DNA of 63,931 bases, counting the filler, from Hausera hauseri (taxonomy: Eukaryota), in NCBI GenBank assembly GCA_046269625.1. It is 12 parts of 12 records of this genome, joined end to end, with 100 filler letters (N's around TTAATTAATTAA, not from the genome) between each part and the next. Parts side by side here need not be neighbours in the genome. Positions count along the whole stretch, not along the records: positions 45,695 to 49,858 come from JBJURY010726547.1; 11 more parts are not named here. The stretch is one strand, 5' to 3'. A model generated the notes under the pieces. That model was given only the letters and a program-made list of their open reading frames with translations, had not been told where the DNA came from and did not search any database. The position numbers were made by a program, and so were the translations under genes. Below are positions 2,937 to 63,931 of this stretch, one piece after another (within the stretch, counting starts at the first letter, position 1; every line of letters begins with the position of its first letter).

Positions 2937-2947
2937 TTGACTGTCAA

Positions 2948-3310: not shown

Positions 3311-3311
3311 T

Positions 3312-8900: not shown

Positions 8901-9418
8901 AGGTGCTGCGCCTAGATCCCTGAATAGATATGGTTCACTGTCCAGTCCTTTGCCATATATGCAATATGATGAGAGTTCATGATATTGGTATGCCGTTGTG
9001 CTGCTGTGCTGGGGATTAGGACTGCAACTCTGAACGGGACGCGGAATAGCCTCAAAGTCGCAATAGATAACTATTGGGACCTTGAGTTTCTTCTTGAACT
9101 CCTTGAATTCAATGTAGTCCTCATTGGGGAAATCTGGCCTGATACAATAATTGTTGCTGCAGTACATCTTGTGCTCTTTCAGCTTTAATACAGCTACATC
9201 GCCGCTGAAATTGGACATGCATAGTTTACATATTTCTATTTGTCCATGATGTTTCGTAATTTGTGACCTGACTAGCCGCTCAGTGTTTGATCCAAACATA
9301 ATGTTTCTTTTCTCCATCGTCTAGTAGCAGATCCCTATGGTCTTGCAATTCAGTGTCACATCTTTAGGGGATAGAATTTGTTCTCATCCAATCCCAAGAT
9401 ATTGATTCATATATTGTT
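8898..9418 (-). pseudogene. Inverted fragment of lineage B pPolB
   Basis: ERLVRSQITKHHGQIEICK..KVPIVIYCDFEA..SEPYLFR; closely similar to the 43670-44200 and 62700-63240 copies. Confidence 0.9.
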
Positions 9419-34800: not shown

Positions 34801-37800
34801 TTTACTCTCGACGGTACTGTCTTGTATGTCATTGAATGATTTTACAGTATTTCGTGGTTGTACTTCTGGCTGCACAAATTGTTTAGATTTCCCCGTACCA
34901 TTTACAGATTTGTAATGTGATATATTTACTATTGTCTCTTCGATCGACGTCGATTTTCGAATTTTCAAACCGGGTGCTATTTTAGTTTCTGTAATATCTT
35001 CCTGTGTTTTACTCAATGTCTTTACAATACCTTTTGGTTCTTCTTGTGCAGATTGCTGAAGCTTTGTTACATCTTCAGTAGGAATTTGACTCTGCGACAG
35101 TTGTCCAATCCTTTCATCGTTTGCACGTGATTTACGAGGTTTCTTCACTGGTGGTGTTTGCCTTTCAACCGTATCAGCTGGCGTTCCTGTGATTGACAAC
35201 TCTGTCTTCGAAGGATTCACACCAGAATCTGAAGGAACACCATTTGCAGTTATAATACGAGATATTGTTTTCCTTTCTTCAACAACCGTTATTTTTACCT
35301 TAGAATCATTGTCATCTAAGTCGGTCATTTCATTGGATTTCATACTCCCTGGACGTTTCGATGTCTTTCTTTCTTCCTTTGCTTTCCTTGGTTCTACTTT
35401 TTGGACTTCAGTAGTACTCATTCTCATACGATGTATATCATCTTTCTTATCGGCATTTGGAACCGCATGTCCTGGTTTGGCCACTAAATTCACATCATCT
35501 GTTTTATTCATACCGATTAGTGTACCAGATTCAGACGATTCTGAGCTTACATTTCGATTGGTTACTTCAATGACTTCAGTCGATGAAACTTTCTTTTGAA
35601 TAACCAGTCCTGCACTTCTTGGTGGTTCGTCAACATTTTCCTTTTGTGGACTTGGCTGGGTCGAAGGCGATTTTTGGACTTTACTCGGTTTTTTAATATT
35701 TTCCTTGGAGTTACTTCTTTCAGATTGAGATGACTTTTTCTTCACTAATGATGGTGCCGGTGCCGTGTGTTTGGAACAATCGTGCTTACGAATCACTCGC
35801 TGTTCACTTCCTGAACTAAATGAATCTAACGATTTGGATCTGGGCTTTGATATCTTTTTAGCTGACATTTTAGGTGATTGTATGTCTTTATTATCAGTCA
35901 TAGCACTTGGTTCGGATATTTTTTCAGCAATGTTACTAAGATAATAGTCTGTTAATGATATTGGTCTCCCTTGACTATTCCATTCAATGACAATCTGATC
36001 CAATTGCTTCATTTTGTCATTTATGATTTCCTCGATGACTTCTAAACAAACTAAATTCAGAGAACTCGTTTTCTGTGTAATAGACACCACAAATGCACAA
36101 GTTCTCAACAGTTCGTTCTTCAGTTCACCTATAATCGCTGCAATTTCGACCATATCCCTCGTACCACTATCAATGTTCACACTTATAATCAATTCAACGA
36201 TTTCTGCGATCATTTTCCTGGCCTTCTTTATGGCACCATGCCAGTTATGAGTATTCAATTCAGGATCCTCGAAAAGTTTTGTTATTTTCTTTTCCACCGA
36301 ATACGGTCTTGATAATGGATTCTTACTAGTTTTCAACTCAATCATCATTGTCTGAACAATTCGCTTTATGATGCATTTTGGAAGAACTGCTGGGGAACTG
36401 TTGATATTTCTGTTTTTCCGCTGCATGGATGACGATGCCAATGAACTAGTAGTTATGTTTGAATACGGTGTGTCAACGGCGTTATATTCTGATTTCATAA
36501 CGGGTATAACATTTTGCATTTGCGATGAATGCATGGATTGGATTGTCTCCTGAACACCAGATGGAATAAAAATTTCTTCCGTTGATTTACTCATTCGCCT
36601 AACATCTGGGATCGTTGGTTTCATAGATGCAAAATAATTTATTGACTCCTCAGATCCCATTGATGGAATTTTAGGGGTCACATTACTCTCGACATTCTTC
36701 GTAAAACTCAATTTTCCTGTTATAGCTAATGATTGTCTACTGAAATCATCGGCAAAATCATTGATGTCTTTTAGAGTTTCGGTGAATTCAATAACCGATG
36801 GCCCTTTCGTTCCATCAGTAACTAATTCCTTGATATTTTCATAAATGAGAGACGTGGCTTTAGCGAGTCCATCATCTTCAGTAATTATATCCGGTACTTT
36901 AGATGTATCTAACAGAGATTTCTTCGTACTTGGTAGTCTTGATAGTTTTGGAATGCCCATGGATACCTTTGATTCTTCATCACCCTTTAGTTCATCCTGA
37001 GACATCTTACTTCCGGTCTGAGGTGCAGACTTTGATCCGGGTTGTTGTTGTCTGTTTGGTTTTGGATCATTCACAGGTAACGTTTTTGTATCATCTTTCT
37101 TACGTGAAGATTTTATCGTTGATGATGGCTTAGTTGTCTCTTCTGAAACCCTACTTAGCATTCGTGACTGTTTTAGATCTTCAACAGGTATTCTCATAGC
37201 AATCTCATCAAAAAACGTCACATGATCGTCAGCATTTGGTAATCGTTTTTCTGGATATTCCTTTAATGGTCCAACATGGGCAAATCGCTCACTGTCATCA
37301 AAATCGACTATTCGTTTGGACACCTCCTGTCTCATAGCATTTTGTTCTGCTTCAATGAAAAGCTTGTTTAGTTTTTCAGATGATTTTGTTCTGGGTAAAT
37401 TGAAGAAAACATTTGGTTTTTCACCCGGTGATACATGAGATTTGTATTCGGATGATGATTGATCTGTCGATTCTTTTGATTCAGTGGATCTTCTTGATTT
37501 GATGTTCACTTGTGCTTTTGAGGGTACGATATCGACTGAAACATTTGACTCACCCGAAACGGAAATATTCGGGTTCTCGTCTTTCGATGATGGTTTTGGC
37601 GATTTCCTTGACTCAGAATCTTCTGTTAATAATGTCTGTTCCTTAACTGATGTTGCATTAGCTGATGGATCGGAGATAATTACATTGGGTTTATAATCTA
37701 TCAGAGATTTTTCTCCATATTTCTTGGTTGACAACATATTCCGAAGTTTTGAAGGTTTCTTTTCATTTTCGAGTGAGTCAAATTCGGCAGCAAATGGTAT

Positions 37801-39261
37801 ATCTACTTTTGATGGCTTAGTCGAACTTTTCCGAGTAAAATTTTCAAATATTTGCTGAAGTTTAAACTTTTTATGATCTTCTTCAGGACTTGGAATGATA
37901 GGCTTTTCATCTGTGATGTAATGTTCGACATTATCGAATGATGGTCTTGAGAAATGTTTTACCAGCAATGTACCTTGTACTGCAGGTTCCGGCAATTTTA
38001 CTGGTTCAACGTATATTGTTTCCCCCGATACTGAGTCATCGAACTCGTCCGAAAACGGTATATGCCTTGAACCGGGTGGATCTCTTTTAAGTTTGTACTT
38101 TTTATCTTCTGCAGTACCATCGAATTCGGTAGAAAACGGCAGTTTCTGACTCTTCTTTGAGAATCTAATGTCAAAAAATTGATCGGTCAATTGTGGTTTT
38201 GGCAGGGGATTTCTGACTTCCGTATAAATTTCATCATCGCTCCTCGATCTTTCTTTTACTTTCCCTTTACCAAAGTCAAATTCGAAACTCCCTCTACTTT
38301 TACTCGTTAACAATTCTCCCGGCTCTTGGACGATATCCACACTACCTTTACTTCTGCTCTTTACTAACTCACCAGGCTCTTGAATAAAGTTCTCGCTGCT
38401 TTTACTAATACAGACGAAATTTGGGTTTATCTTAAAATAGTTCTTCCCCAACCCTTTATTCAGTGTTTTGTCTTCAAAGAAATCGTCAGAACCATTATTT
38501 CTGTTGCACAGCTCTCTCAATGGTGAATCGTCATCACTCATACTGGACCGTTTTTCATTTGGTTCAATGGATTCCATTACGGTATTATTTTGTGATACGG
38601 ATAAAAAGAGTACATCGGCCGTGTGCGTTGTACTGCAGAATTCCGGAACTGCCACGTCACTAGTGTTTCGACTTATAAAAGAAACTGTTTCGTTGGACTC
38701 GTTAAATCCGGGAAATATTGGCAAAGCAACGTCCTCAGTCGCATGTTGCAATATTTCCTTGTTTATTAAATTCAAAAATTTCTCTTTCTTTTTATGCTGA
38801 TCCGAACTTTCGAGAATACCAAAAGACTGTCTATCGAATTGGACATTAATGATGTTCTTATCATTGTTGTCTTGCTTCAGAGTTATTTTCATATCACACG
38901 ATGACTTACATAAGTCATCATTTAGGTCGGTTTTAGACATCTTACTTTTCCGATTCACATGACCTTGAACTCTCGGATTCGTCAATTCAAATTCAATACT
39001 CGTAAACGTTGTCGTATCGGAAAGACTCAATGATTCGAAAATTGAATCATCAATTGATGAGTAGAGTTTACGAGATTCGTTATCAAATGAATAATCCTTG
39101 TTCTTACTGATTGTTTTTGGTCGGGTTCGTTCCGAATGATGTCGAGACGGAAATCGGGCTTTCATTTTCAAATAAACAAAATGAGGCAAAGATTGTTTCA
39201 ATCTGCTCATATAAACTTGATTGTTTAACGTTGGAGTACTTTCACATTTCGTTTCATCCAT
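31864..39261 (-). CDS. Large intronless Ser/Lys/Glu-rich, mostly disordered protein (2465 aa), function unknown
   Basis: Uninterrupted 7.4-kb ORF in an AT-rich genome, with internal repeats, a Lys-rich basic tract and helical islands. Minus-strand AATAAA near 31735. Confidence 0.85.
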   Translation of the reverse strand: MDETKCESTPTLNNQVYMSRLKQSLPHFVYLKMKARFPSRHHSERTRPKTISKNKDYSFDNESRKLYSSIDDSIFESLSLSDTTTFTSIEFELTNPRVQGHVNRKSKMSKTDLNDDLCKSSCDMKITLKQDNNDKNIINVQFDRQSFGILESSDQHKKKEKFLNLINKEILQHATEDVALPIFPGFNESNETVSFISRNTSDVAVPEFCSTTHTADVLFLSVSQNNTVMESIEPNEKRSSMSDDDSPLRELCNRNNGSDDFFEDKTLNKGLGKNYFKINPNFVCISKSSENFIQEPGELVKSRSKGSVDIVQEPGELLTSKSRGSFEFDFGKGKVKERSRSDDEIYTEVRNPLPKPQLTDQFFDIRFSKKSQKLPFSTEFDGTAEDKKYKLKRDPPGSRHIPFSDEFDDSVSGETIYVEPVKLPEPAVQGTLLVKHFSRPSFDNVEHYITDEKPIIPSPEEDHKKFKLQQIFENFTRKSSTKPSKVDIPFAAEFDSLENEKKPSKLRNMLSTKKYGEKSLIDYKPNVIISDPSANATSVKEQTLLTEDSESRKSPKPSSKDENPNISVSGESNVSVDIVPSKAQVNIKSRRSTESKESTDQSSSEYKSHVSPGEKPNVFFNLPRTKSSEKLNKLFIEAEQNAMRQEVSKRIVDFDDSERFAHVGPLKEYPEKRLPNADDHVTFFDEIAMRIPVEDLKQSRMLSRVSEETTKPSSTIKSSRKKDDTKTLPVNDPKPNRQQQPGSKSAPQTGSKMSQDELKGDEESKVSMGIPKLSRLPSTKKSLLDTSKVPDIITEDDGLAKATSLIYENIKELVTDGTKGPSVIEFTETLKDINDFADDFSRQSLAITGKLSFTKNVESNVTPKIPSMGSEESINYFASMKPTIPDVRRMSKSTEEIFIPSGVQETIQSMHSSQMQNVIPVMKSEYNAVDTPYSNITTSSLASSSMQRKNRNINSSPAVLPKCIIKRIVQTMMIELKTSKNPLSRPYSVEKKITKLFEDPELNTHNWHGAIKKARKMIAEIVELIISVNIDSGTRDMVEIAAIIGELKNELLRTCAFVVSITQKTSSLNLVCLEVIEEIINDKMKQLDQIVIEWNSQGRPISLTDYYLSNIAEKISEPSAMTDNKDIQSPKMSAKKISKPRSKSLDSFSSGSEQRVIRKHDCSKHTAPAPSLVKKKSSQSERSNSKENIKKPSKVQKSPSTQPSPQKENVDEPPRSAGLVIQKKVSSTEVIEVTNRNVSSESSESGTLIGMNKTDDVNLVAKPGHAVPNADKKDDIHRMRMSTTEVQKVEPRKAKEERKTSKRPGSMKSNEMTDLDDNDSKVKITVVEERKTISRIITANGVPSDSGVNPSKTELSITGTPADTVERQTPPVKKPRKSRANDERIGQLSQSQIPTEDVTKLQQSAQEEPKGIVKTLSKTQEDITETKIAPGLKIRKSTSIEETIVNISHYKSVNGTGKSKQFVQPEVQPRNTVKSFNDIQDSTVESKAPSRRITRESVSTEETVIKASHHKSMDDTGKSKQSVQQEPRSTIKTMNETQDDTVDSKALVRQITRESETVEDTFVKASHHKSLDDTRRSKESVQRDPRSTVRKLDDIIESKAPSRREIPESVSDEGRFVRSSQRPRSLDDTEMSKQSIQQPGTIVKKYSKTQESIESTTTGRRETHESVVIGEIIIRQSARPKSLDETEEPKQEQPDTARTLARESSASSVNTEDDQIPDDTQKTEISRSKKHKAVRRKGSKESSDDQRSGKKKKKGKKSKKKKGKGRSRTSSIESTKSFDGQSRKLKKGKPKTPPKKNNTDNSRSIYDDVKPKDNMKKSQKSTKQLADDYVILESHDKPSVHKRTSRNSQRSKSRSSSNVSNKGKKPMKPYNAQEIDTESSKLLTAVQNGKPLSPKRQSTDNDRAVSKSSEKPRDDREKQVKLSDFSIPGFSLITDSRVKKTKDIIKTSAVESKAQLPMLEPARAELTSLVMVNNQPLIQRSPNMSLIDKLSREYPIWKTPIASGSSSIRDLIEFIINTTSYGVDINMALFEEIVKELDDLEKELMSSVAVNIHQCRQAKKDLDGFCFEILAHIINNELGQAKYMFQALDENFIPANFSQMGKLYRNYIDKMKKPEVVDNASESSIVTRTESIVEKKVSFKSAEKFEFTLTKNLEKVHTKTPVNYAHATAEILNYTEETFSEDNEQASKPMASVKVIDTKIRPSMAMSNDDNIVSKTSVVPLDDSSLMMIIKKLDEQSNEISQIKTSIELLHNLVQTKLSNIGCRYNPKSLNFAQASNLHSSPEMINKPTSNIFSIQPKEHHYSSQTDIKADTYQSRSFIAPISNKTTEQFVSPKSLDTQQSNQQFTDVDVLFLIIDGAHNLLMAQQSNFQPKSKAQTGDYCEKLNTEFDFIFNWVLDRYNETIESMKEDPLNRYIVDNINSGSLQQRRNMEKHLISKIVNDNNLFISQWVKEICFRRVIDCLTNE
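34190..35060 (-). repeat. Five coding tandem repeats of about 55-60 aa within the 2465-aa ORF
   Basis: Units such as KQSVQQEPRSTIK...ESKAPSRR.TRES...EET.IKASHHKSLDDT..S. Confidence 0.85.
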
Positions 39262-42087: not shown

Positions 42088-45000
42088 TTACAATGCCACA
42101 TGTCCGTGAGGTAGTGTGCTTATTCCATAACCCAGGATCTGCCTTTTGTCGTCCATCCAATCTAGGTTCTTCTTCTGTAATGTTACTGTCTCAATCTTAT
42201 GATCCCTAGACTGGATCCTTTGCATCTCCGATATGATGCGAGGCTGCTCATGCAGAACTCTCACATAATCTACAAAAGTTATCTTCTTGGCTAAGGTAGC
42301 CCTTTGAACGCCCTTACCTATCTTTTTGATCCGACCGCATACATCAATTGCATACATTTTGAACCTCAGAGCTACAAATCTCAAGATGATTGCTCCATTC
42401 ACCTCGTCTTTAAATTTCCCAAGGACTTTCTTGTTGGTAATTGAATAGTTGGGATGATCATTAGGATAGTCAGACGTATCCATATGCTGTGCCAACTTAG
42501 CAAAGTCCTCATAAATGTCCTCAGTATGGATCTGATAGATGAAACTATCAGTATCCATATACATCAGCTGTATGGACTTGAATGTGGGAACCATGATGTC
42601 ATAGTGGAATTCGTACATTAGGGTCTTTGACAGGTCGAAGATTGCCATACCAACACATATGGGCTTGTTGAATTGCAAGGATGTTTTCAGCACATGGAGG
42701 CTGACCAAGTTCTCCGCATATATGATGCTCCTGTGGAAATTTGGCTTGGCAATGAGATTCTTTGCCCGCTTCCACTCAGAGACGAGTTCAATGTTGATCC
42801 ATTTGCAGAGATTTTCCATGGTCTTGCCAAAAACGCTGTTCTTGTAGAGCTTAAACTGTTCCTTCTCAAAGTCGTTCTTGGCATTGGTCCGCAGCTTTGT
42901 ATTGAGATCCAATGCATAGCTCTTTATCGTAACATCCCTGAAACTCTCAAAGACATCCGTCAGAAGCAACACGTCCATCTTGAGATATATGTTGCTGTTT
43001 TCTCCTAATGTTCGTCATTGGAATGCATGCCAGACGTTCTGAGCACGCTGGTAGTCCATATCACTGATATCGCAATCTGAGAGGATATTGTAAAAGTCCT
43101 TCTTGGCCGGCAGTGAGTTTCCAGAGTTTCCCGTGATGTTATATAGTCATAGGAAAACACGCCCTTCCTCTTGACGAGGTCAAATGTAGTGGGGAAGAAC
43201 CGCTTCGTCTCCTTGAGTTCTTCTGCAGGCAGGTTCTTCACTAAACTGTCAAGTGAAGACGAAATAAAACGGAAACTGTCTACGAAGCGAAGCCTGATTC
43301 TTCCAACATGCTTCGTAAATGTGATGCATTTTTCCTCACTATTAGGGATCACATCAATGTTTCCTTCAATGCAGCCCAGTTCCCGAACAATGATATGAGA
43401 ATCATATCCACTGAGATTATGGAACATTACAGGCACATATGTATATGTTTTGCAACGTAGATTGCAATTGTTGCATGCCGCGCCTCGATATTTGTCTGTA
43501 AAATGGAAATGATCCCTGATTTTATAATTATCCTTAGTGAATGATTTGGAACACAAGTAACATGCTGTTGCCTTGCGCCATTCTTCTTGCATTTTCGACA
43601 TGTTCATTGTATCCTTATGCTGCTGCTGCATATCTCCAATCCTATGAGCCATATCTTCAAATAGTTTCATGAAATGAGCTGCTGCGCCTGGACCCCTAAA
43701 TAGATAGGGTTCACTGTCCAGTCCTTTGGCATACATGCAATATGAGGAGAGCTCATGATGTTGGTATGCCGTTGTGCTGCTATGTTGTGGATTAGGACTG
43801 CAACTCTGAACTGGGTGCAGGATCGCTTCAAAGTCGTAATAGATAACTATTGGGACCTTGATCTTCTTCTCGAACTCCTTGAATTCGATGTAGTCCTCTT
43901 TGGGAAATTCTGGCCTGATACAATAATTATTGTTGCAGTATATCTTGTGTTCTTTCAGCTTCTCCACAGCTACATCGCCGCTGAAACGGGACAAGCATCG
44001 TTTACATATTTCTATTTGTCCATGATGTTTCGTAATTTGTGATCTGACTAGCCGCTCAAAATATTTGATCGAAACATGATGCTTCTTTTCTCCATCGTCT
44101 AATAGGACCAGATCCCTATGATCTTCCAAATTAGCATCGCACATCTGCAGGGGATAGAATTTGCCTCCTCGTCCAAAATTCGAGATATTGATGGACATGT
44201 TGACTTTTCCAAATTTTTTGACATCATCTAAGGATGGAGGGAACTTGATACATTGGAAGTCATAGTTGTGCTGCACATCTTTATATAGCTAAACCCCTGA
44301 AGCATGATTTTGATCCGTTACGAGTATTGATAGAATGGCATACATGAAACACATGTTGTCATTGTTATGGTCATTGACACATGCATTTTTATTAGCGATC
44401 CAATCAGGGAACTGAATATATGAACTGCCCCGAATAGGAGAGTACTTGTGAACATACACAAGCAATCTCTTGATGGTTGCCAGAGTCCATCCGCTTTTCT
44501 TATATTGACTCTCCCCGGCTTCACGGATCAGCTTCTCGTGCGCCTCTTGCATCCATTCTGCTAAATTGGTGTTTTCCAATATGGGTCTATTTTTGGTCTT
44601 GAAGGCCCTATTGGATTCTTCGGCATCAACATTGATGTACGTGGCCTCCAGTTTCATATTCACTTTAAGGGCTTTGAGCTCCGCCATGTTGTTTTGAAGA
44701 ATTTCCTCTGTCTCGTCCTTTTTTATAAAAGGAAGTATTGGAGGGTTGTTTGCCCAGTTGCCTCAATAACATATCTGCAACATTTTCTCTTTAATGCTGC
44801 TGCATCAACTGGCCGCTGCCTTTGGCTTTTTGATGGAGCATCTTCTGCTGCTGCTATGCGTTTTAGTCCTGCGTCGGACCTTGCTGCCAAAGCAGGCTGT
44901 ACAACTAGCTGTGCTGCCGAAGCAGTCTGTTCTGCCAAAGCAGGATGCTGCTCTTTAAATATGACCTTCTTTGACTTTGACTTGAAGTCTGTCAAATGGG

Positions 45001-45208
45001 CAATATGATCTTCGTAAAACTGCATGTATTCTCCATCACATACAGCCTCACATCCTGGGCAAATATAACAGAAAATACTATTGAATTTGTATCCATAGTA
45101 GCTCCTCATGGTATTGTGACAGTTCTGAGGGTTGTGTATTACACATGTACAATACACGTATGAACTGCATCTTTGATTTTGCTTAGACATGGAGGTCATT
45201 ATTAACAT
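42088..45208 (-). pseudogene. Polinton pPolB lineage B, near full length with internal deletion
   Basis: ORFs 44723-45208, 44289-44687, 43005-44276, 42088-42978. Motifs KSGWT, GSSYI, YYDFEA, RDHFHFTDKYRGAACNNCN, FHNLSGYDSH, FVDSFRF, KLYKNSVFGK, YMDTDS, GKFKDE, DDKR. Confidence 0.95.
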
Positions 45209-45694
45209 AGTGGTATGGAATATTTGTTTTTCAACTTGGTGAAGGAAATGAGGTGTTATTTATGGGCATTTTAAGAGTCTTCATATTTGGTCTGGCACAC
45301 TACCTCACATATAGAGCATATATACTACTCAGCCCTGTTGTATAGATGGCTGAAGTATTTCTGTATAATATTATGTCAATTTTCAGGCTCGTGGATTTGA
45401 GCCAAGCACTGTTTGTATAGATTGCACATCTAAAAATCAACCAATTATTCGAGGAGCACAAATAAAAATCTCACCATTTGTGGAAGTGATTTGTAAATAA
45501 TTAAACATAGCCATATCAATGCATACTGCCTCATTTATAAATTTTTTTAAATTTTCGAACATTCTAGAACACTTTGTTTTAATGCATCAAATAANNNNNN
45601 NNNNNNNNNNNNNNNNNNNNNNNNNNNNNNNNNNNNNNTTAATTAATTAANNNNNNNNNNNNNNNNNNNNNNNNNNNNNNNNNNNNNNNNNNNN

Positions 45695-46818
45695 ACATAA
45701 TGAAAGTGTTCATCATTCTCAAGAATAAGTAAGTTCACTACAGAACCATTCGGATTTTTGCTACGGTATAAAATATCTACGAATGGATTTTTCACTATGT
45801 CCTCATCAAAGTCAACATCATCCTCATTATGATACAAGAAGACATTAATTGAAAGCTGCGGATTTTGCCTCTCAAATTTAGGAATATTACAAATTTTCAT
45901 TGGCATGTCTTCTGCGGAATAATTTAGTTCACCTAAATAAGGAGTGTAATTGCTTACTCTATTTCTATGAGAATAATCAAAGAGAGAATATTTTGTCACA
46001 GCTAGTATGGAGTACAGGAAGCACAAATGGTCGTTGTTCTGCACATTAATAACAGCTGTTGCATTTCGTAAAGCTTCAGGTGTTTGAATGTATGATCTGC
46101 CAGACAAGTAGGGTAGTGGGCTTGTCTTAACAATATGGAAACAATACTTCAAGATCTTCACTATTTTCCACCCACTACCCATTTCTGCAAAATTCTCAAT
46201 TTGTTTACTTAAACTATCAGCTACTGTTTGCGGGTAAGAATCCTCATATGGTACTGCTCTGTGTGAAATGTATGCCTCTTTGAAATCACCTTCAGAATTC
46301 TCAAAAAGAATCTCAAGACCATATTGAACCTTACAAGAGGAGAAACGAGACGTGTACATGTGAAAGGTACTTAGTATTTCCTCAGGTGGTCGAACAGAAA
46401 TAAGATGGTCGGGCGCCACATCAAAACACAAACGCACATAATTATTTCCAAGAACAGTATGCACATTAAGTTTTGTGTTATTAACAGTTTGTTGTCTTTG
46501 TTTCTTCATGGACTGATTAGGCTGGTTCTGTGTCCTTTTGTTTGTCTGTTTAACTGGTTGGGACGTTGATTGTTGGTTTGCTGATTGTTGGAATGGCAAT
46601 TGTTGTTCCATGACAAATTGTTTCGCCAAGTTTATCATTTCCTTGTGTTCTCGAACAATATTCTTTTTGGGTTTGGTGAAGAATGTGAGGTGCTGATGTT
46701 GGTGTCGGAATGTTGGGAATGTTTGACCTGATATGACATAACAGGTTGGACAAACATAAAATTGTCGTCCATCGATTTTTGTACCATAATATTTTGCCAT
46801 GGTTTCCTCACATGACAC
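45695..46818 (-). CDS. Polinton pPolB lineage A, intact N-terminal about 375 aa, cut by contig end
   Basis: Open frame homologous to 6221-7330 (MAKYYG, ENFAEMGSGWK, GRSYIQTP, INVQNND.LCFLYSIL, FERQNP.LSINVF). Confidence 0.92.
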
Positions 46819-47127
46819 TGGTGAATGAATCTCAGCAGTGCAGTAATTGAAATTGCAGTTCTATATAATATTAAATAAAGAAATGAAGAAAAATAAACAT
46901 ACCATTTTGTAGTTATAATTTGAAAGTCACTTAAAATGTATATCAACACTTTATTTATACTAAAATTTAACCAATAGAATTTAACCAATCAAAAGTAGCG
47001 AATGAAAATGTAGGATATAAATAGAATAACATAAATAATATGTTGTGTTTTGCAAATAGTTACTTATAAAGTAATGAAAGACATTTATGATACAAAGACA
47101 TTTATTATACAAATATTGTACAAGAGA

Positions 47128-47598
47128 TTAAATGTTTTCTTCATCATCATCTAACCATTTTTCGAGACCGACTTTTGTTAGATTTGTAATCTGAGTGACT
47201 GCAATAGCTTGAGCATTGTTATTGTATATTATAACTCTGTTACTTTGTAACCGACAATCTGTACATTCATGTAATCCAGAGTCTATGAAACAATTAATGC
47301 ATGTCTGATGCGTCGTATTGAAGCAACCGTATATTCTGACAGTGTATCCGATCGAATTGCCGAAGCAAAGTGGACATTCATTGTTTTGGACTTCCTTCAG
47401 TTTGTTGATGTTACATTGCGATACATGTTTACCATTTGAATTGAAGATGTCCACAATGTTATTTTGGTTTCGACACATGGGACATGACTGTTTGTGTTTA
47501 GACCATTGCACAAAACAGTTCAGACAATGATGGTGGGTGCATCCAAGTAAACGGATGTTGTAGGAAGTACAATTGTTAAGACAGATTGAACAAAACAT
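47128..47598 (-). CDS. Tandem double RING-finger protein (putative E3 ubiquitin ligase), Polinton accessory gene
   Basis: CSIC..CTHHHCLNC..W..CPMCR, then CPLC..GC....HQTCINC....CTDCR. Upstream of and co-oriented with pPolB. Confidence 0.85.
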   Translation of the reverse strand: MFCSICLNNCTSYNIRLLGCTHHHCLNCFVQWSKHKQSCPMCRNQNNIVDIFNSNGKHVSQCNINKLKEVQNNECPLCFGNSIGYTVRIYGCFNTTHQTCINCFIDSGLHECTDCRLQSNRVIIYNNNAQAIAVTQITNLTKVGLEKWLDDDEENI

Positions 47599-47865
47599 GT
47601 TGATGAAAAAAGAGAAATTATATTTGATTAATAACAGATATATAGTAAGTTGTAACCAATAGAAATGTGTGTGTGTGAGCTAAATAGTTTTGTTAAAGAC
47701 TTGTATTAATGTCTTATTTAGTTTTGTCTTGTATAGTTATATTAAGACAGGCAGACACATACAAATAAGGAAAATTGTCTACATAGACAAAACTATTGTC
47801 ACAACATTATATTTTGTTGATCAAAATATTTAATATAACACAACGTAATTTGTATGATTTGTTAA

Positions 47866-47969
47866 TATTTTACATTTAATATATTGCAATATAATAAACA
47901 TATTACGTTGCGGTATATTTTTCATTTAATATATTGCAATACAATAAACATATTACGTTGCGGTATATT
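47866..47969. repeat. 50-bp tandem duplication between divergent genes
   Basis: catttaatatattgcaata(t/c)aataaacatattacgttgcggtatatt twice. Confidence 0.9.
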
Positions 47970-48033
47970 ACGTAGAGTATATAAGGAAGTGTTTGTCATT
48001 TGTTTGTTAGTTTTACAAAATTCATTTGAACAA

Positions 48034-48216
48034 ATGTCGAAAATTACAATATCTGAAAAGGTAAAGCAACAAATGATTGTTGCCGGAATGGAGGAACAAA
48101 GAAAGGAATATATACCAGAAAGAAGTGATGATAGTTCGTCAGTGCAGATACCGGATTATGAACCGAGGGACATCGATGTAGCAAAGGATAATGGTAATGT
48201 TGTATGTCAATATTAA
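48034..48216 (+). CDS. Short acidic ORF, possibly the frameshifted 5' part of the downstream gene
   Basis: MSKITISEKVKQQMIVAGMEEQRKEYIPE...DYEPRDID; overlaps the 48204 ORF. Confidence 0.4.
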   Translation: MSKITISEKVKQQMIVAGMEEQRKEYIPERSDDSSSVQIPDYEPRDIDVAKDNGNVVCQY

Positions 48217-49211
48217 ATATAATACATAATATTTTAGAAACAGCAACAACAACAACATTGAAAGAAAACTTGACACAGGAAGTCATAGCCGCAGCGCAAG
48301 CAACTGGTAATTTAAATTTTATTTTACAAATGAACTTGAAGGTACATTTAGATACTGCAGTGGACTTGGATATAATTCGAGAAGATTTGGAAGTCAGCGA
48401 TGATGATTTCTTATCGGATATATCATCAGTGCAAAGAACAGAAGAAAAGGAAATTGTAATGAAGAAGCCATCAGTTGTTTGTGAGGCACGGATAACAAAA
48501 GAAAGGCGGCAAGTTTTGCAGAAGGCGTGCGAAGCAGCGAATAATTCTATGGAAAAACAAGAAGTGAGAAATAAGTTAATTGAGAAGTGGAATAAGGAGT
48601 ACCATCGAAGGCGCAAGGCACCAGTTAGTTTGAAAATGAAGGAAGTGCCGATGGATTGTGTCAGTGACCCGAAGCTTAGTGTAAACCTGAATAAGCGGTT
48701 TGAAATTAAGCCAAAGGTGAAAGAAACAACAGATTCGGCAAAAATGGTTCAGATGAAAGAACATAATAGGCGGTTGGAAGCAGAATTGAAGAAGGTGAAG
48801 TTGCAGAACACGCATTTCCAGAGTAGGCTTGAAGAGCAAGCAAAAGAAATTTATAGGTATATCAAAATGTTAAACAAGGTGAAGAAGAATGTGGAGACGC
48901 AGACGAATGTTGAGGTAAAGGGGAAGGTTGTTGGTTCATGTTTTAGTATTGCCAAGCTGGTGGAGGGAAAGCGAAAGGATTTAGGAATGCAAACTGAAAA
49001 GGTGAATGAAGAAGATAGGCGTTGTATGATGAGAAAGTGTGGTATACAAACGGAGAAGGTAGATATGGTTGGAATGTCTACACAAACCAGTCTTTGCAGT
49101 TGTGAAAAGGGGGTGCAAACGGATGATGATGAAGGAAAGAAGAATGATGGCAAGATGACGACTGTGTACAACAATTGTCGCATTGTACACAAGAATTATT
49201 ATTATAAATAG
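48204..49211 (+). CDS. Coiled-coil protein with five TQT/xQT (LC8 dynein light chain-type) motifs, Polinton accessory gene
   Basis: Coiled coil KEHNRRLEAELKKVKLQNTHFQSRLEEQAKEI, followed by KNVETQT, DLGMQTE, KCGIQTE, GMSTQTS, EKGVQTD. Confidence 0.75.
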   Translation: MSILNIIHNILETATTTTLKENLTQEVIAAAQATGNLNFILQMNLKVHLDTAVDLDIIREDLEVSDDDFLSDISSVQRTEEKEIVMKKPSVVCEARITKERRQVLQKACEAANNSMEKQEVRNKLIEKWNKEYHRRRKAPVSLKMKEVPMDCVSDPKLSVNLNKRFEIKPKVKETTDSAKMVQMKEHNRRLEAELKKVKLQNTHFQSRLEEQAKEIYRYIKMLNKVKKNVETQTNVEVKGKVVGSCFSIAKLVEGKRKDLGMQTEKVNEEDRRCMMRKCGIQTEKVDMVGMSTQTSLCSCEKGVQTDDDEGKKNDGKMTTVYNNCRIVHKNYYYK

Positions 49212-51024
49212 ATGTGTATATTTTTATTTCTTTGTAAATAGATGTGTTTATTTTTAGTTCTTTGTAAATAAATGGTATGTTTTCGTCTTCAGTGTTTTGT
49301 TTTCGTGAATGTAATGAAATTTTGTGATATATAACGTATAAATATGAGATTAATGTAACAGAAATAATGTAAAGGAATATAAGTGTATTTAATTCAAGTA
49401 AATAAGTAATAGATTAATTTGTTTTAAATAATATTTGTTATTGTTTAAATAATATTTGTTAACGTATAAATAATGTTGATAAAATTGAAGAAGATGGGTA
49501 TAAAATATATGTTTAATTCGCACAATATAATAAAGCATATAGAAATATAAGAAGGTTAAAATTGTTTTAAGTTATCATAATCTTATAGCATCGTTTAGGA
49601 GGGAAATTTTAAAAAGTTTAACAATAAGTAGGTACAAATTAGAAGGTGTACGTTTGAAAGGAAGAGGTATATAATGAAATTTGTGTGCCTGTGTGTATGG
49701 GTTTTATATTATATACTACTGTTGTATTAGTAAGTATAATAGGGAATGGAAATTTTTCAATGAAAAATTTATGTAGAAAAATTTTTTCATAAAATGAGCG
49801 GATATAACTGAAATGAATTTTTTAATAAAATGACAATTTTGGAAAATTTTTCGAAAATNNNNNNNNNNNNNNNNNNNNNNNNNNNNNNNNNNNNNNNNNN
49901 NNTTAATTAATTAANNNNNNNNNNNNNNNNNNNNNNNNNNNNNNNNNNNNNNNNNNNNTGTTATTATTCACTTTTCAGATATTCGACAATCAGGATTTAG
50001 CAATCATAAGGAATCACGGTAAGTGCTTTTTATTTTACAAGCTCACATTTATTTGCAGACAGGAAATGGGAGTAAGTACTTTTCTTTTTTTTTATTTACA
50101 CTACTTAATTGTCAGTTCATTCAGGTTGTGTTCATATCGATCAATACCTCGTATTGTATAGGTCATTAATTTGGTTATTTGATTATATTTTGTTTTCTTG
50201 CTTGTTCATTAGTTATTAATTAACATTTTATTGATAATATTGATAGCGTAGTCGATATATAAAACATTTATTAATACATATTGTAATAGGACCTTTTAAT
50301 TAAGATTAAAAGTCAGGTTCCCCTATTTTCTTACGGTCATAAAAACCTTGAATTTAAATTGTCATAATTAAGGGTACGACACTAGTGTTCCTCCTAGTGT
50401 TCGACCTCACTAAGATCAAATAGCTCAACAGGCAATCCCCACAGGCTGCCCGTGGGAATAAGTAAATTCCTTTGGCTTGGTAGAAGAAGAAATCCCAAGT
50501 CACATATTCGAATTTGAGTAAGTATAAGTTTGAGGTTGAGAAACCCAAACCTTTTCTAAACTTTTTAAACTTATCAATATAAAACACAACAAACTCCGCT
50601 AGTACAAAATTTATAAATAAACATTTTAGAAATAAAACTATATATTTTTGTTAAATATTTTTGTATCACTTTCAATGGATTATATTTAATTTTTAGACTA
50701 AAATGACAACAAATGAAATCGCCAAGATATTAGCCATAAAAGAAAAATTGACATACTAAAATTGATAGATAAAGAGACAAACTTGAAATATCAAAAAATT
50801 TGGAACTTCTCGTTCCACATGAAGTTTATTGATTTCTAAAAGGCAGAAAATTAATATTCGAGACAAAAATACGGATTCTCGAGTTATATGAGTTTAATAA
50901 AATTGCTTAAAAATCACTGCCAATGATGATTAGTTATAAACAAATTAAATGACCGTGAAGCAAAAAAGCAACACATCAGACCAATTTTATATCAAAATTT
51001 GTTCTGTAAATAAANNNNNNNNNN

Positions 51025-54296: not shown

Positions 54297-56152
54297 AACA
54301 TATATCGTTCTGCTCTGGGAAGTATTTGTTCCTCATGAGTTTCGACGTAAGGGTAATATTCTTCTTCTTTAATGTTCGATAGCCATTTTTCGTCACCATA
54401 AATTTCAAGATCGTAATCCAAGTTGGTCAGAGGAATTTCGAATTGTCTGGTGTAATTAAGTGTTGGTTCATGACGGAATAAGTTTCTTCTTCCATGTCTA
54501 CGCTTGTATATACATATAGCAATAATCACTGCTATAACAAGTATAATATTAGTGGGTAACACGATTACCATTAGCAAGAGTTTATGGTAATTTGATTGTA
54601 GTCCCTGTAATGGCTCAACTAATGGTAACATGGTTTTTAATGTTTCGTTGTTCTTAGAAAAGTCTGTGGATATTTTAAAAACAAATCTTCCTCTCTTCAT
54701 TATTTCATTGAGTGTGGGGAATTTGAATAATAAATTTACTCCCTTTTTGAGTGTAGTGACTTCGAATAAGGCAACTGTTTTCAATCTTCGTAGTGGATCA
54801 TAATAAGGCAACTGATGATGGGCTAGATAAGGATAGCCTGATATTAATTGGGCGCACTCGACGTGTGTGCTGGTAATTAAGAAACAGGCGTCATTTGTAT
54901 TTTCCAATGTGACTATAAAATCAGGATCTGGCAGACTGAATATTACACGATCAGGTCTTACTTGTACATAAATTTCCAATGGTTTAAAGAAAATAAACTG
55001 GATGCGTTCTGGTGCTTGCCTTATTCCTGCTATTAGGTATGGAATCTGATTATGAACTGAGTAATGAAAACTGCTTAACCAAAAGGTATTTGGACAGGAT
55101 GATTGGAGCTGCAGCGTGAGAAGTATCTGTCGATTATTTCGTTTCGTGCACGATATTGGAGGTCGGGGGCTTGTGACCTCTATGTTATAAAGCTCGTCAG
55201 TATATTGTTTTGCGGTGCATGAGAGAGCATAACTAACTTTACTAATTCGTAGTGCTACTACTAGGATTCCTTTATCATTGAATATCTTTGCTCCAATACG
55301 TTTATTATCTTCGATTGAAGGCGCACACGGTATCATTGGTGCTTTTCTTTCTCTTCCAGTTACCGTACGTCGCCATATAGCATTTACAAGGCGAAACATA
55401 GCGAAGATCAATAAATATTCTTGGTCAGGTCGTGTATATATGCAAGTTGATCGATTATGTTCTCGGAAATAGTAAACATCATTTTGTCCAAAAGTTGTAT
55501 CAGCATATCGTGTAGTTATTTGCATTATTCTTCCTTTTGGAATCTTTCTATCCCATTCAATTGGTAAGCATGGCTTTTTATAATCGGGTTGGCCTATAAA
55601 TACTCTATCTTCTAGGAATAATGTGTCGATTTTGGTTAACTCTTTCTGTTCGGGTGAATTGTCCGTTAGAGATAACATAACGGTTTTTGGTTTTAGTGGT
55701 ATCGTTATTTTGAATGTTCGATCTTCATAGAGAGGTGAATTTTTATCCTCTGACATATGAATTTGCACCGAATAAATAGTTCCAGGCATAACTTTACAAC
55801 AATTTTCCCCATAGAAAGACGTAGTCGTACATAGCATTTTTTCTTCTCTATATAATATTAACGTTCCCCAGTTTTCGTTCATTGTTTTATTACTATTTAT
55901 CCCAATTCGTGGATTGAGGAATCTCAGGGATAAGCAGTTTCTTGTGTGATTATATTGAATGTACAGATCTCCTGGAGTAATACCTTGTATATCCCACGGT
56001 TCTATTTTTGGGATTCTCTTCAATTATTTCATGAAATCCGAAAACGTATTCGATGATACATTTGTTGTTTTCATTGAGTTTACTGTTGGATTTGTAAATG
56101 AATCTGGTATGCAACAGACCAATATACCCATTGGTAATAACATTCTGCGGGG
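54297..56152 (-). CDS. Module 2: signal-like PRRMLLPMGILVCCIPDSFT, paralogous ectodomain with an extra domain, TM, Tyr-rich tail; one stop at 56024
   Basis: YNHTRNCL..CCKV.PG.IYS, YALSCTAK..YNIE..NRQILLTLQ..CPNTFW and PERIQFIFFKPL match module 1. TM LLLMVIVLPTNIILVIAVIIAICIY + KRR. Confidence 0.75.
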
Positions 56153-58027
56153 TTATGATTCGTGTTTAATCCGTGATAGTTGGGTCTGGACAGGTCTTTT
56201 AGTTTTTCGGTGGCTTTTAACGTATAATAATACTACCCACACTAATATAAAAATAAGAACAACAATAGGTGCAACTATTATTAGTAACAAATGTCTATCA
56301 TCTTGTTTTGTTGTCTTACTGAATGTTTGGTTCTTCACTATTGTCTTATTTTCGTCTGGTATTACTTGCCGTTCCATATGGGCATCAAATCGTTTACCGG
56401 GCGTAGTTATATGACACAATGCTATCGTTTTTTGTTGGTATATTATTTGTATAATGTAAAGACATTGGGGTTTCAGACTGTCACAACTAATAAATGTATC
56501 TTTAAATAGTGAACATTTAACCGTATCATCATCAAATGATATCATATAATTGTTATTAGGGAAGTTAAACATGGCATTTCTGTCATTTACTTGATAGGAA
56601 ATATTCAAAGGAGTAAATCGAATCGTTTGAATATGTTCAGGAAGTTGTAGACCGTCATAAGATGCATGTAATGGTGAATTGAATGTATTAAAATAAGTTG
56701 TACTGCTCCAAAACATATTGAGACACGGAGACAGCATTTGCAAGGTCATCAATATTTGTCTGTCATTACCTGACACACAGATTCCCGAAGGTTCCATACT
56801 GGAATATTCTATATTATAATCCCCATCATTTGTCAATTTTGCTGTGCATGTTATTGTATACGTGACATTTTTTGTTCTAGGGGTGATTCTCATAATTCCA
56901 TTGGAATTGTCTACATCTGCATTTATTGGTCGATCATATTCGGGTGTTAAACGACATTCATCGTTATTTTCTTTAATGGGTTTGTCCGCTTTTACTCTTG
57001 TTATAATTGGTTTGATAGTTGTTGTTCCTGTAGGTATCGTAATAAAGATAGTTTGTTGGAAGGTGATATTGTGGCCAAATCCATTTGTTCGCATAGTGAT
57101 TTGATATAATTGAAAGGTAAGGGAATAAGTGTATCCTTGAGTAACCAAACAACATTTATTATCCTTTAATTCCGAATGCACGACAGAGATAGGCCTATTT
57201 TCTTCAAACATTGTTATTGCTTCTCTTTCTTGACCACTCAACCCTCTTACATGAGTTATCATTAAGCATTTTCTCTTGGAATTATAATAAATTGAAAAAA
57301 CCTTAAAAACAAATCGACTATTATTATCTAAATCCAAACGTGCATTTTCTAATAATTTTGAATAATCTTGATATACAGTATGCAGTTCCCGCCCTTGGTC
57401 GGAATTTGAGATCAGGGTTTGATTCAGATAAGGTGTAGTGGTTGTTCGTGCCAAAACATTGGTCATGCATAACGCTAATATACATGAGAACAAAGTAATT
57501 CTTCCAAACTGCGGTTGTACATTCTGGTATTGTTGATTTACCGAATCACTTTCTTCATCTTGTTGGTTGTTCGATTTAAAGATGTTCTTGCTCGCGATAG
57601 GTTCCTTACTTGCTGTAGAGTTTATATTCAGGCTATTTTTATCGAGCTGAACCTCTATCGCAAGATTCGAGTTATTCAATTCATTGTGATTTACGTCGGT
57701 GGTAGAGTTCTCTTCTTCTTCTAATACTGGTTTTAAACTAACTTTATTCTCTTTGGTAAGTTTTGGGAGGAGTTCAATTAATTTGTCGATATTCTCTTCC
57801 ATTCTATTCCAAGCTTTCTTATTTCTGGTAGGTCCTCTGAATTTCTTTTTCTTTCTTAAATAATGCTTTATATTAATCGTATGCATCGCCATTTCTATCA
57901 AGTACCATTGGTAAGGCAATTTTGTCGACAATGCTGCTCTTTGCGGTATTTTAGCCAAATATTTTATCATACGTGCCTCATCTCCCGATAATAAATCTAC
58001 TTGGGTTAGTCCTAGATAAGCCATCAC
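56153..58027 (-). CDS. Module 1: internal signal (FGRITLFSCILALCMTNVLA), Cys-containing FN3-like ectodomain, TM (LLLIIVAPIVVLIFILVWVVLLYV)
   Basis: Hydrophobic segments, several N-x-S/T sequons, paralogy to module 2. Confidence 0.75.
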   Translation of the reverse strand: MMAYLGLTQVDLLSGDEARMIKYLAKIPQRAALSTKLPYQWYLIEMAMHTINIKHYLRKKKKFRGPTRNKKAWNRMEENIDKLIELLPKLTKENKVSLKPVLEEEENSTTDVNHNELNNSNLAIEVQLDKNSLNINSTASKEPIASKNIFKSNNQQDEESDSVNQQYQNVQPQFGRITLFSCILALCMTNVLARTTTTPYLNQTLISNSDQGRELHTVYQDYSKLLENARLDLDNNSRFVFKVFSIYYNSKRKCLMITHVRGLSGQEREAITMFEENRPISVVHSELKDNKCCLVTQGYTYSLTFQLYQITMRTNGFGHNITFQQTIFITIPTGTTTIKPIITRVKADKPIKENNDECRLTPEYDRPINADVDNSNGIMRITPRTKNVTYTITCTAKLTNDGDYNIEYSSMEPSGICVSGNDRQILMTLQMLSPCLNMFWSSTTYFNTFNSPLHASYDGLQLPEHIQTIRFTPLNISYQVNDRNAMFNFPNNNYMISFDDDTVKCSLFKDTFISCDSLKPQCLYIIQIIYQQKTIALCHITTPGKRFDAHMERQVIPDENKTIVKNQTFSKTTKQDDRHLLLIIVAPIVVLIFILVWVVLLYVKSHRKTKRPVQTQLSRIKHES

Positions 58028-60527: not shown

Positions 60528-63500
60528 TACAATGCCACATGTCCGTGAGGTAATATATGGATTCCATCACTCAGGATCTGCCTCTTGTCATCCATTCAAT
60601 CTAGGATTTTCTTCTGTAATGTTACTGTCTCAATGTTTTGATCCATAGACTGGATCCTTCGCATCGCTGATATGATGTGAGTCTGTTCATGCAGAACTCT
60701 CACATAATCCGCAAAAGTGATCTTCTTGGCTAAGGTAGCCCTTTGAACTCTTTTGGCTCGCTTCTTTACCTGACCACTTACATCGATGGCGTACAGTTTT
60801 GATCTCAACGCCACGAAACGGATGATGATCTTCCCATTCACCTCGTCTTTAAATTTCCCAAGGACCTTTTTGTTGGTAATTGAATAGTTGAGATGATCCT
60901 TCGAATAGTCAAACGTATCCATATGCTGTGCCAACTTAGCAAAGTCCTCATAAATGTCCTCAGTATGGATCTGATAGATGAAACTATCAATATCCATATA
61001 CACAAGCTGCATGAACTTGAATGTGGGGAACATGATGTCATAGTGGAATTTGTACATCAGGGTCTTTAACAGGTCCAGTATTGCCATACCCACATATATG
61101 GGCTTGTTGAATTGCAAAGATGTTTTCAGCATATGGATGCTGACCAAGTTCTCCGCATATATGGTGTTGCTGTGGAAATTGGGCTTGGCAATGAGCTTCT
61201 TTGCTCGCTTCCACTCAGAGACCAGTTCGATGTTGATTCTGTTGCGGATATTCTCCATGATCTTGCCAAAAACGCTGTTAATGTACAGCTTGAATTGATC
61301 CATCTCAAAGTCGTTTTTGGCATTGATACGCAGCTTAGTATTGAGATCTATGTATGGCTGCAGCCACATGGACTGGTTAAACTGCAGGGCTCTATGGACC
61401 TTAGTAATGCGGAGTCCATTCCTGACTGCCTGATGGAGATTTATGTAGTGGACTACATACCTCTCCCTACTATCCAGATGGCAGAGCAGCTTTCTATGTT
61501 TTCCATGAGGCGTAGACTTGCTCTCAGGGACGAAAGGCAGCTGTTGATGCCTTGTGTAAATAAAAGCCGGATATTCCATATCTACCTCCAGTATGTAGCC
61601 CGTATCTCCACTGGGATCCGGGTCCAGTATAAAAATGTTTTCAGTATGCTCGACCCACTTGAAGTTATCATATAAAAATGGGATGCTCATTGCACATCCA
61701 TACAAGTTGTTGGCATCCAGGTATGATATATATGAGGATTCCTGGGATGGATCATACTAGGCCATACAATTGTTGTTAACTTCACTATACCGTTGTCTGG
61801 TCTGGCATATTCTGCTTCTAATGCGTCTCTCAATCATGAGGATCATGTCGTAATCCTTTATGATCTGCAGCCTGATACCTGTATAGCGCAGCATAGCTGC
61901 CAAACTCGTCCCTGGAGTCGAAAAGAAATGAGCTGGATCCAATGTGTGGCTCTTTATCGTAACATCCCTGAAACTCTCAAAGACATCCGTCAACAGCAGC
62001 ACGTTTGTCTTGGGGTACATTTCGCTGTATTCTCTTAATGTTCGGCATTGGAATGCATGCCAGACGTTCTGAGCATGCTGGTGGTCCTCATCATTAATAT
62101 CGCAATCACAGAGAAATTGTAAAAGTCCTTGGCCGTCAATGAGGTCTCATCCAGTGTTTCCCATGAAGCTGTATAGTTATAGGGAAACACGCCTTTCCTC
62201 TTGACGAGGTCAAATACAGTGGGAAAAAACCGCTTCGTATCCTTGAGTTCTTCTGCAGGGAGTGTCTTCATTAAACTGTCAAGTGGAGACGACATGAAAC
62301 GGAAACTGTCTATAAAGCGAAGCCTGATTTTCCCAACATGCTTGGTAAATGTGATTTATTATTCCTTACTATTAGGGATCATATCAATGTTTCCTTCAAT
62401 GTTTCCCAGTTCCCAAACAATGAAGTTGGAATCATAGCCACTGAGATTATGGAACACCACAGCACATATATACATGTTTTGCAGAGTAGATTGCAGTTGT
62501 TGCATGCCGCACCCCGATATTTGCCTGTAAAATGACAATGATCCCTGACTTTATGATTCTCCTTAGTGAATGATTTGGGGAACAAGTAACATGCTGTTGC
62601 CTTGCGCCAGTTTTCTTCTTGCTGCTTCGACATGCTCATTGTATCCTTATGCTGCTGCTGCATATCGCCAATCCTATGAGCCATATCTTCAAGTCGTTTC
62701 ATGAAATGTGTTGCTGCGCCTGGACCCCTGAATAGATATGGTTCACTGTCCAGTCTTTTGGCATACATGCAATATGATGAGAGCTCATGATATTGGTATG
62801 CCGTTGTGCAGCTATGTTGAGGACTAGGAGTGCAGCTGTGAGTCGGCCGGAGAATAGCTTCAAAGTCACAATAGACGACAATTGGGACCTTGATCATTTT
62901 CTCGAACTCCTTGAATTCAATATAGTCCTCCTCGGGAAATTCTGGCCTGATACAATAATTGTTTTTGCATTACATCTTGTGCTCTTCAAGCTTGTCCACT
63001 GCAGTGTCACCGCGAAAATGGGACAAGCATTGTTTACATATTTCGATTCTTTCCTTATGTTTCGTAATTTGGGATCTGACTGGACGTTCAAAGTTCTTTA
63101 TACAGATGAAATGCCTCTTTTCACCGTCATCTAGTAGGAGCAGATCCCTATGATCTTCCAATTAAGAGTTACATATCTGCAGGGGATAGAATTTGTCTTC
63201 ATCATCCAATCCAAAGATGTTAATGGACATGTTGTTGATTCGCCCCAATTTTTTGACTTCATCTATGGATGGCGGGAATGTGATACATTGGAAGTCATAG
63301 TTGTGCTGCAAATCATTATATAGCCAAACTCGATCAGCTGCATGCTTTTGACCCCGTAGGAGTTTACATAAAATGGCATACATGAAACACTTGTTGTCAT
63401 TATTAAGGACATTGATACATGCTTTTTATTAGCGATTTAATCAGGGAGCAGAATATAGGAACTACCCCGCATGGGAGAGTACTTGTGAACATACACAAGC

Positions 63501-63931
63501 AATCTCTTGATGGTTGACAGAATCCATCCACTCTTCTTATCCTGGCTGTCATCGGCTTCATGGATCAGTTTAGCATGCTATTCATGCAGCCATTCTACTA
63601 TATTGGTGGTTTCAAAAATGGATATATTTTTGGTCCTGAAGGCCCTTTTGGACTCTTCGCCATCAACATTGACGTATGACCTCAAGTTTCATATAGACCT
63701 TAAGGGCCTTGAGCTCAACTATGTTGTCCTGGCGAATCCCTATTGTTTCTTCCTCTCTGTACTCCAGGAACTCCTTGATGGCTGTTTGACCAGCTGCATC
63801 AATGACATATTTGCGCACTTTTCTCTTTGATGCAGGAGCATTAACTGACCGCTGTCTTTGGCGTTTTGATGGAGCCGCTACCCCTGATGGGCCTGATGCG
63901 CATTTTAGTCCTGCAACTGGATGTGGTACTG
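60528..63931 (-). pseudogene. Polinton pPolB lineage B, second copy, decayed; retains motif A segment
   Basis: YLDANNLYG, GYILEVD, KLYINSVFGK, YMDIDS, GKFKDE, RDHCHFTGKYRGAACNNCN. Colinear with 42088-44900, including the 3' flank 60320-60530 matching 41880-42090. Confidence 0.95.

Follow-up and report, generated by a model that had tools for sequence, protein, structure and literature searches.

Multivalent LC8 scaffolds such as ASCIZ/ATMIN, Nup159, Chica, Pac11 and Panoramix carry several QT-anchored sites joined by mixed linkers, and a duplex-scaffold model has been put forward for clients of this kind (PMC10046861, in part); the same text calls the TQT anchor typical of LC8 sites, and none of the multivalent partners in its Fig. 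1C legend is viral. LC8 sites are also described in disordered regions beside coiled coils (PMC3078936, in part). Rabies P, Ebola VP35 and HPIV3 P, which are polymerase cofactors of RNA viruses, combine an oligomerising coiled coil with an LC8 motif in a disordered region and use LC8 structurally, as a brace (PMC8615749, in part). For Polintons, long N-terminal regions and endonuclease insertions are described in the protein-primed polymerase pPolB (PMC11161782, in part), and coral polintoviruses hold many uncharacterised genes (PMC11131425, in part). Adintoviruses typically carry host-modulating genes upstream of PolB, where the Oncoid/Adintoc genes lie beside a Cys-rich gene, being motif-driven and probably host-modulating (PMC8502044, in part). 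In nematode Mavericks, intron-bearing cargo genes, captured from hosts and including wasp and krma, occupy a variable Maverick/Polinton region (bioRxiv 10.1101/2022.07.12.499685, in part).

The gene analysed here, below called the target, shares with the multivalent scaffolds several QT-anchored sites with mixed linkers and a tail that is modelled with low confidence and probably disordered, adjoining a coiled coil predicted to dimerise; unlike them, it lies beside a Polinton polymerase, and no sequence homology between them was found. A sequence-only reading had likened it to ASCIZ, and the likeness holds for the multivalent LC8-client-like layout but not for descent, ASCIZ/ATMIN homology being rejected in view of the missing zinc fingers, with no C2H2 Pfam match in the 9 members scanned, no CxxC and no sequence homology. 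With rabies P, Ebola VP35 and HPIV3 P it shares the pairing of coiled coil and LC8 motif, and LC8 is proposed to serve likewise as a structural brace, whereas the target is a probable accessory gene of a DNA element, in a family with NLS-like motifs and as many as five clustered sites. Its place upstream of PolB beside a Cys-rich gene and its motif-driven, probably host-modulating character recall Oncoid/Adintoc. Oncoid membership was rejected, since LxCxE, CR1 and paired CxxC matched nowhere in the target, its exon 1 or P0001-P0009, and the four family motifs were not found in the part of the PMC8502044 supplement examined; the family may be Adintoc. Like wasp and krma, the target appears intron-bearing and placed in a variable region, but no protease, kinase or ubiquitin-like domain was detected in it.

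The window, a stretch of 63,931 nt from Hausera hauseri, is made up of 12 contigs, with the same artificial spacer of 100 nt (44 N, a 12-nt linker, 44 N) between each and the next. Since the contigs are artificially joined, neighbourhood claims across any spacer are unsupported, and only the contig at 45695-49858 (4,164 bp) counts as linkage.

5586, 10136, 15305, 20772, 24855, 29078, 39913, 45595, 49859, 54197 and 59749: starts of the artificial spacers
45595..45694: left artificial spacer of the target contig, the left limit of provable linkage
49859..49958: right artificial spacer of the target contig, the right limit of provable linkage

Three genes lie on this contig, namely a cut pPolB frame, a RING gene and the target gene. 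Linkage of the target to the pPolB at 42088-45208 was rejected because that polymerase is on a different contig, and capsid-like pieces are likewise separated from the target by artificial 100-nt spacers. No second copy of the target gene was found within the window. RRM and EGF exons are present on other contigs of the window, indicating an animal host.

45697..46800, minus strand: N-terminal 368 aa of what we read as a Polinton-type protein-primed DNA polymerase B, an open frame cut by the contig end
47128..47598, minus strand: RING-finger gene, 156 aa, matching PF13639 with E 1.8e-7, which passes the curated cut-off
47865..47969: 50-bp tandem duplication in the divergent promoter region

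The cut frame on the minus strand, in our reading the N-terminal portion of a Polinton pPolB, shares 61% identity with a broken copy at 6221-7330, which continues into PF02945-like (endonuclease VII-like) and PF03175-like (PolB-like) pieces, each below its curated cut-off. It is also 30% identical to part of the pPolB at 43005-45208, which passes PF03175. The RING gene lies upstream of pPolB in the same direction, and the target is transcribed divergently about 1.2 kb upstream of PolB. At the second pPolB copy, about 210 bp are common across the pPolB start and the upstream region, with 67% identity, and beyond them lies a frameshifted, inverted RING-like remnant; the common upstream stretch and this remnant suggest that the DNA upstream of pPolB belongs to the element and holds accessory genes that vary, as is reported for adintoviruses (PMC8502044, in part). 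A search for terminal repeats on the target contig (4.2 kb, cut inside pPolB) found none, and the contig carries none of the integrase, ATPase, protease and capsid genes. The Polinton linkage proposed earlier is supported by the pPolB N-terminus on the same contig, but only within 45695-49858, where terminal repeats were not found, and for the family as a whole the linkage comes from this one 4.2-kb contig.

The 335-aa ORF at 48204-49211 on the plus strand is present as first described, with five QT motifs after a coiled coil. Its start at 48204 is probably wrong, as that ATG falls inside a predicted intron; the upstream ATG at 48034, followed by a short intron, is probably the true start.

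47978 and 48007..48012, plus strand: TATA-like box and initiator-like element, about 31 nt apart (predicted promoter)
48034..48193, plus strand: predicted exon 1, 53 codons, an open frame in which both listed variants are synonymous third-position changes
48194..48237, plus strand: predicted 44-nt AT-rich GT..AG intron, one of 15 frame-keeping splice pairs
48238..49211, plus strand: predicted exon 2, with conserved core, coiled coil, QT tail and stop
49267..49272, plus strand: polyadenylation-signal-like hexamer

The intron at 48194-48237 was picked among the 15 splice pairs for its AT-rich acceptor, and the resulting gene model predicts a protein of 377 aa. We take the elements at 47978..48012 to be a promoter from their spacing, which is that of Pol II promoters; a bacterial promoter scan of the region was set aside as irrelevant to a eukaryote. 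Exon 1 has no convincing counterpart in the homologue N-termini.

Within the protein, numbered along the 335-aa ORF, five regions precede, follow or adjoin the QT motifs.

48357..48431, plus strand: VDLD stretch, SIM-like, with an acidic Ser/Asp patch (aa 52-76)
48462..48617, plus strand: NLS-like motif of bipartite type that leads into a basic helix (aa 87-138), helix pLDDT about 90
48651..48722, plus strand: most conserved family motif (aa 150-173), with invariant alignment columns
48732..48893, plus strand: coiled coil (aa 177-230), predicted to be a parallel in-register homodimer
49164..49208, plus strand: C-terminal Asn/Ser-Cys, Tyr/His-rich motif, found in the target, 5 of 6 homologue clusters and fragment P0009

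AlphaFold2, run with 9 sequences, gives a mean pLDDT of 56 and a pTM of 0.22, with confident helices at about aa 100-130 and 180-230, while the QT tail (aa 235-335) stays below pLDDT 50, which with so shallow an alignment is a mere proxy for disorder. The helix right before the QT motifs reaches pLDDT of about 90 and shows a clear heptad, in which 75% of the a/d positions are hydrophobic and two a positions hold Asn. Modelled as a pair, aa 95-240 are predicted to form a parallel coiled coil, in register across aa 177-230, with a homodimer score of 0.54 against 0.00 for the best control, at least 87% of contacts agreeing between runs and pLDDT of at least 61. The homodimer mark was reached by 21/30 solved pairs and 0/23 single chains from microbes and by 17/29 pairs (animals 7/16) and 0/30 single chains from eukaryotes, with only 1/7 eukaryotic pairs lacking an older solved relative reaching it; the pass may reflect likeness to solved coiled coils. 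The coiled coil placed before the motif cluster by the sequence-only reading is supported by both the heptad and the predicted parallel homodimer.

The labels SIM, for the VDLD stretch, and NLS, for the basic motif at aa 87-138, are putative. SIM-like and bipartite-NLS-like regular expressions each match the target and 3 of the 6 homologue clusters, each missing the other 3. The acidic and NLS-like motifs speak for a nuclear location and not for a trafficking role. The C-terminal Asn/Ser-Cys plus Tyr/His/Asn-rich motif stands at the C-termini of P0003-P0009 and is modelled as a low-confidence beta-hairpin.

The QT motifs have their Gln at aa 233, 263, 282, 294 and 305, spaced by 30, 19, 12 and 11 residues. 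Every Gln was scored against the LC8 consensus of PMC3078936 (in part), with Arg at -3 also allowed; the threshold of 3/5 and the tail boundary were set after viewing the sequences.

48885..48908, plus strand: QT motif 1, NVETQTN, TQT anchor, 2/5 of consensus
48975..48998, plus strand: QT motif 2, DLGMQTE, 3/5 of consensus
49032..49055, plus strand: QT motif 3, KCGIQTE, 3/5 of consensus
49068..49091, plus strand: QT motif 4, GMSTQTS, TQT anchor, 2/5 of consensus
49101..49124, plus strand: QT motif 5, EKGVQTD, 4/5 of consensus

All five Gln in the last 110 aa of the target precede Thr. Five QT within 80 aa arose in 6/100,000 whole-protein shuffles, and five QT in 0/100,000 shuffles of the last 110 aa; a chance cluster was rejected at these frequencies. 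Recent DNA tandem duplication was rejected as the origin of the motifs as well: pairwise identity of the motif-coding DNA is only 8-14/24 nt and Tandem Repeats Finder reports no array under them, implying that the QT pattern is kept at the protein level. The claim of five LC8-type motifs stands in part, three of the five reaching at least 3/5 of the consensus, whereas motifs 1 and 4 have poor flanks and none of the five fits the strict [KR]xTQT, which occurs once in cluster P0001/P0007. That type is one of two LC8 motif classes and hence not obligatory (PMC3078936, in part), and QT motif 5 is close to the gephyrin LC8 site as quoted in PMC12057147 (in part).

The motifs recur in relatives. An exhaustive phmmer search returned 6 homologue clusters (E 5.5e-13 to 9.7e-5, 31-42% identity, 269-386 aa), all of them unnamed proteins on 1.0-5.2 kb contigs from ENA. 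The acidic patch, the basic stretch, the core at aa 150-173 and the coiled coil are common to the family, with the C-terminal Asn/Ser-Cys in 5/6; judged on these sequences, the target family is real, conserved and unnamed. No Pfam family passed the cut-off for the target or the 9 scanned members, and no significant match to the family came from the PHROGs, PDB-sequence, Atlas or BFVD fold searches, the pTM 0.22 model making the fold search uninformative. A word-index protein search with the ORF accepted 0/979 candidates, the index being insensitive here and missing most members of its own query alignment; with profile A1 it yielded 1/7,012, an already known family member, and among short proteins 1/346, the C-terminal fragment P0009. 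Locus searches of viral contigs, metagenome contigs and prokaryote genomes found no relative, and neither did pPolB queries of the viral contigs.

Sites scoring at least 3/5 number 3 in the tail of the target (tail shuffle P 3e-4; whole-protein shuffle P 0.01), 3 in P0007, two of them 5/5 (tail shuffle P 3e-4), and 5 in P0006 (0/10,000 tail shuffles). P0008 and P0005 have 2 each (tail shuffle P 0.012 and 0.03) and P0003 has 1 (P 0.07), the whole-protein shuffle not being significant for any of these three; the almost tail-less P0002 has 0. P0001 and P0004 were omitted from the shuffles as near-duplicates of P0007 and P0008. The other ORFs of the window, about 9,100 aa in all, give a background of 6 such sites. 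At least two consensus-fitting sites are thus counted in the target (3 of 5 motifs) and in 4/6 homologue clusters, so the LC8-type sites are kept in the family.

A different purpose for the QT-type repeats, for example as a spacer of self-pairing beta-strands that acts together with the C-terminal Asn-Cys motif, would explain why no strict KxTQT occurs in the target and why several homologue sites deviate, and LC8 motif prediction yields known false positives (PMC12057147, in part). We consider it distinctly unlikely, because in the homologues not only the anchor but also the flanking Asp/Lys and Asp/Glu positions recur, as in the two 5/5 sites of P0007, and because the repeats sit in a low-confidence, disordered-like setting beside a coiled coil. 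LC8 binding is the preferred reading, and from its sequence the target tail probably binds LC8.

In a variant survey, four public runs (4/10 listed) were compared with the contig; the best-matching run may be the window's own source. Among 40 variants listed, with 378 more recorded, 11, from independent runs, are coding, 10 of them synonymous and 1 changing Glu to Asp, and none of these 11 falls in the motif tail. The coding indels listed, a 2+1 insertion and a deletion of 3 nt in the linker that joins motifs 2 and 3, amount to net whole codons. In run X1 the target gene occurs in identical and in about 87%-identical versions, as expected of a repeated gene. Variant-bearing contigs in X1 number 1-14 over the target against 17-112 over pPolB, which means that the target would be present in no more than a minority of related elements. 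Summed contig depth drops from pPolB through RING to the target, although depth cannot rank genes and is not usable as copy number.

Among the loose ends listed, with 832 more recorded, 5 records in X1 match the upstream region and then diverge at 48000, and 1 contig in X4 matches the 3' flank and diverges at the stop codon, 49209. This edge divergence is a hint of an exchangeable accessory-gene slot, coincidence being possible. Common stretches flank the target gene at 47919-48000 and 49209-49455. No public-run piece spans the whole target contig. Two joints in X2, 47885-49285 and 48253-46865, were set aside as single contigs, the first with only 20 letters on its short side, and uncovered bins in X3 and X4 were not used.

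These observations weigh on the idea of a lineage-specific host LC8-client gene, either captured cargo or a neighbour of a Polinton insertion, that does host work. The probable intron and Pol II promoter would fit it, as would the host origin of intron-bearing Maverick cargo, the intact frame with synonymous variation, the terminal repeat that was not found and the smaller number of variant-bearing contigs over the target in X1. Set against it are the lack of a named host protein or family in any search, the several divergent versions within one run and, as a hint from the loose ends listed, the contigs that match the flanks but diverge at 48000 and 49209, and we judge a host gene unlikely. 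An element-borne target gene is the reading we prefer and hold to be likely.

Taking the evidence together, the best explanation of the whole is that of a Polinton accessory gene for a nuclear, LC8-zipped coiled-coil dimer scaffold, a tentative account to which we give slightly less than an even chance; the nuclear scaffold role of the protein is by itself somewhat likely. In the proposed mechanism, an animal Polinton (Maverick/adintovirus-like) would carry, in the variable stretch upstream of its pPolB, an accessory gene for a protein whose dimer is nucleated by its parallel coiled coil. Host LC8 (DYNLL/Cut up) dimers, bound at the paired QT sites, would zip both disordered tails together as a duplex; this would stiffen the rod and display the conserved C-terminal motif pairwise. 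With its acidic, SIM-like and basic features, the N-terminal half would engage host chromatin or transcription proteins, favouring the element, and the stiffened rod would act in the nucleus, with the conserved core and C-terminal motif engaging host partners.

Of the three roles that the sequence-only reading had offered, the LC8-stabilised dimer fits best, while the sponge and the trafficking adaptor are less likely. As a sponge, the protein would be a counter-silencing decoy titrating LC8 from host complexes such as transposon-silencing assemblies, for which the multivalency of the QT tail and the NLS-like motif would be suited; the conserved core and C-terminal motif would then be needless, only 1-5 sites per protein would face an abundant hub, and a Panoramix-like LC8-dependent pathway in the host is presupposed, which makes this role very unlikely. 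In favour of a decoy, LC8/Cut up dimerises the PICTS silencing complex in Drosophila (PMC7861614, in part). As an adaptor, the protein would link element particles or DNA to dynein via LC8; viral LC8 clients exist, and by its charge counts the basic helix could bind DNA. Clients, however, compete with the dynein intermediate chain for one LC8 groove, those of rabies, Ebola and HPIV3 use LC8 structurally, and the gene does not lie in a virion module and carries NLS-like motifs, leaving the adaptor highly improbable.

The earlier view that no such gene had been described for Polintons agrees with literature searches, which found no Polinton/Maverick LC8 client in the literature covered, most subscription papers being outside their reach; 'LC8' in a giant-virus preprint is a strain name, not a protein. 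The principle of a viral LC8 client is known, and the family, its valency and its setting are new. Most Polinton accessory genes have no assigned function, and this family offers a testable host partner, LC8, together with a scaffold mechanism. If nuclear and element-borne, the protein would connect a large DNA transposon or virus with a hub that flies use for transposon silencing. A broader and doubtful extension is that animal Polintons have an exchangeable accessory slot, in which one undescribed family would be a multivalent, LC8-zipped nuclear scaffold rewiring host chromatin control or countering LC8-dependent transposon silencing; within the reach of the literature searches, no LC8-recruiting Polinton protein would have been described before it.

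Other contigs of the window hold further element-like sequence.

6221-8681 (plus strand), 8898-9360 (minus strand), 25141-25641 (plus strand), 42088-45208 (minus strand) and 60530-63676 (minus strand): further pPolB fragments, at least 5, of two divergent types and mostly broken

The contig at 5686-10135 has two different pPolB fragments head to head. A run of short ORFs at 1779-4712 on the minus strand, with no Pfam or PHROGs match, presumably resembles Polinton major capsid, pX-like and penton genes. On the minus strand at 54297-58024, two tandem ORFs of 623 aa and more than 528 aa appear by eye to be paralogues; both have a membrane-like segment at the C-terminus, neither has a significant Pfam match, and they are possibly viral-type glycoproteins. 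An uninterrupted low-complexity ORF of 2,465 aa with internal repeats of about 162-174 nt spans 31864-39261 on the minus strand. The short ORF at 24012-24311 on the plus strand, without a Pfam match, ends in a Cys-rich tail that we take to be like those of piggyBac transposases.
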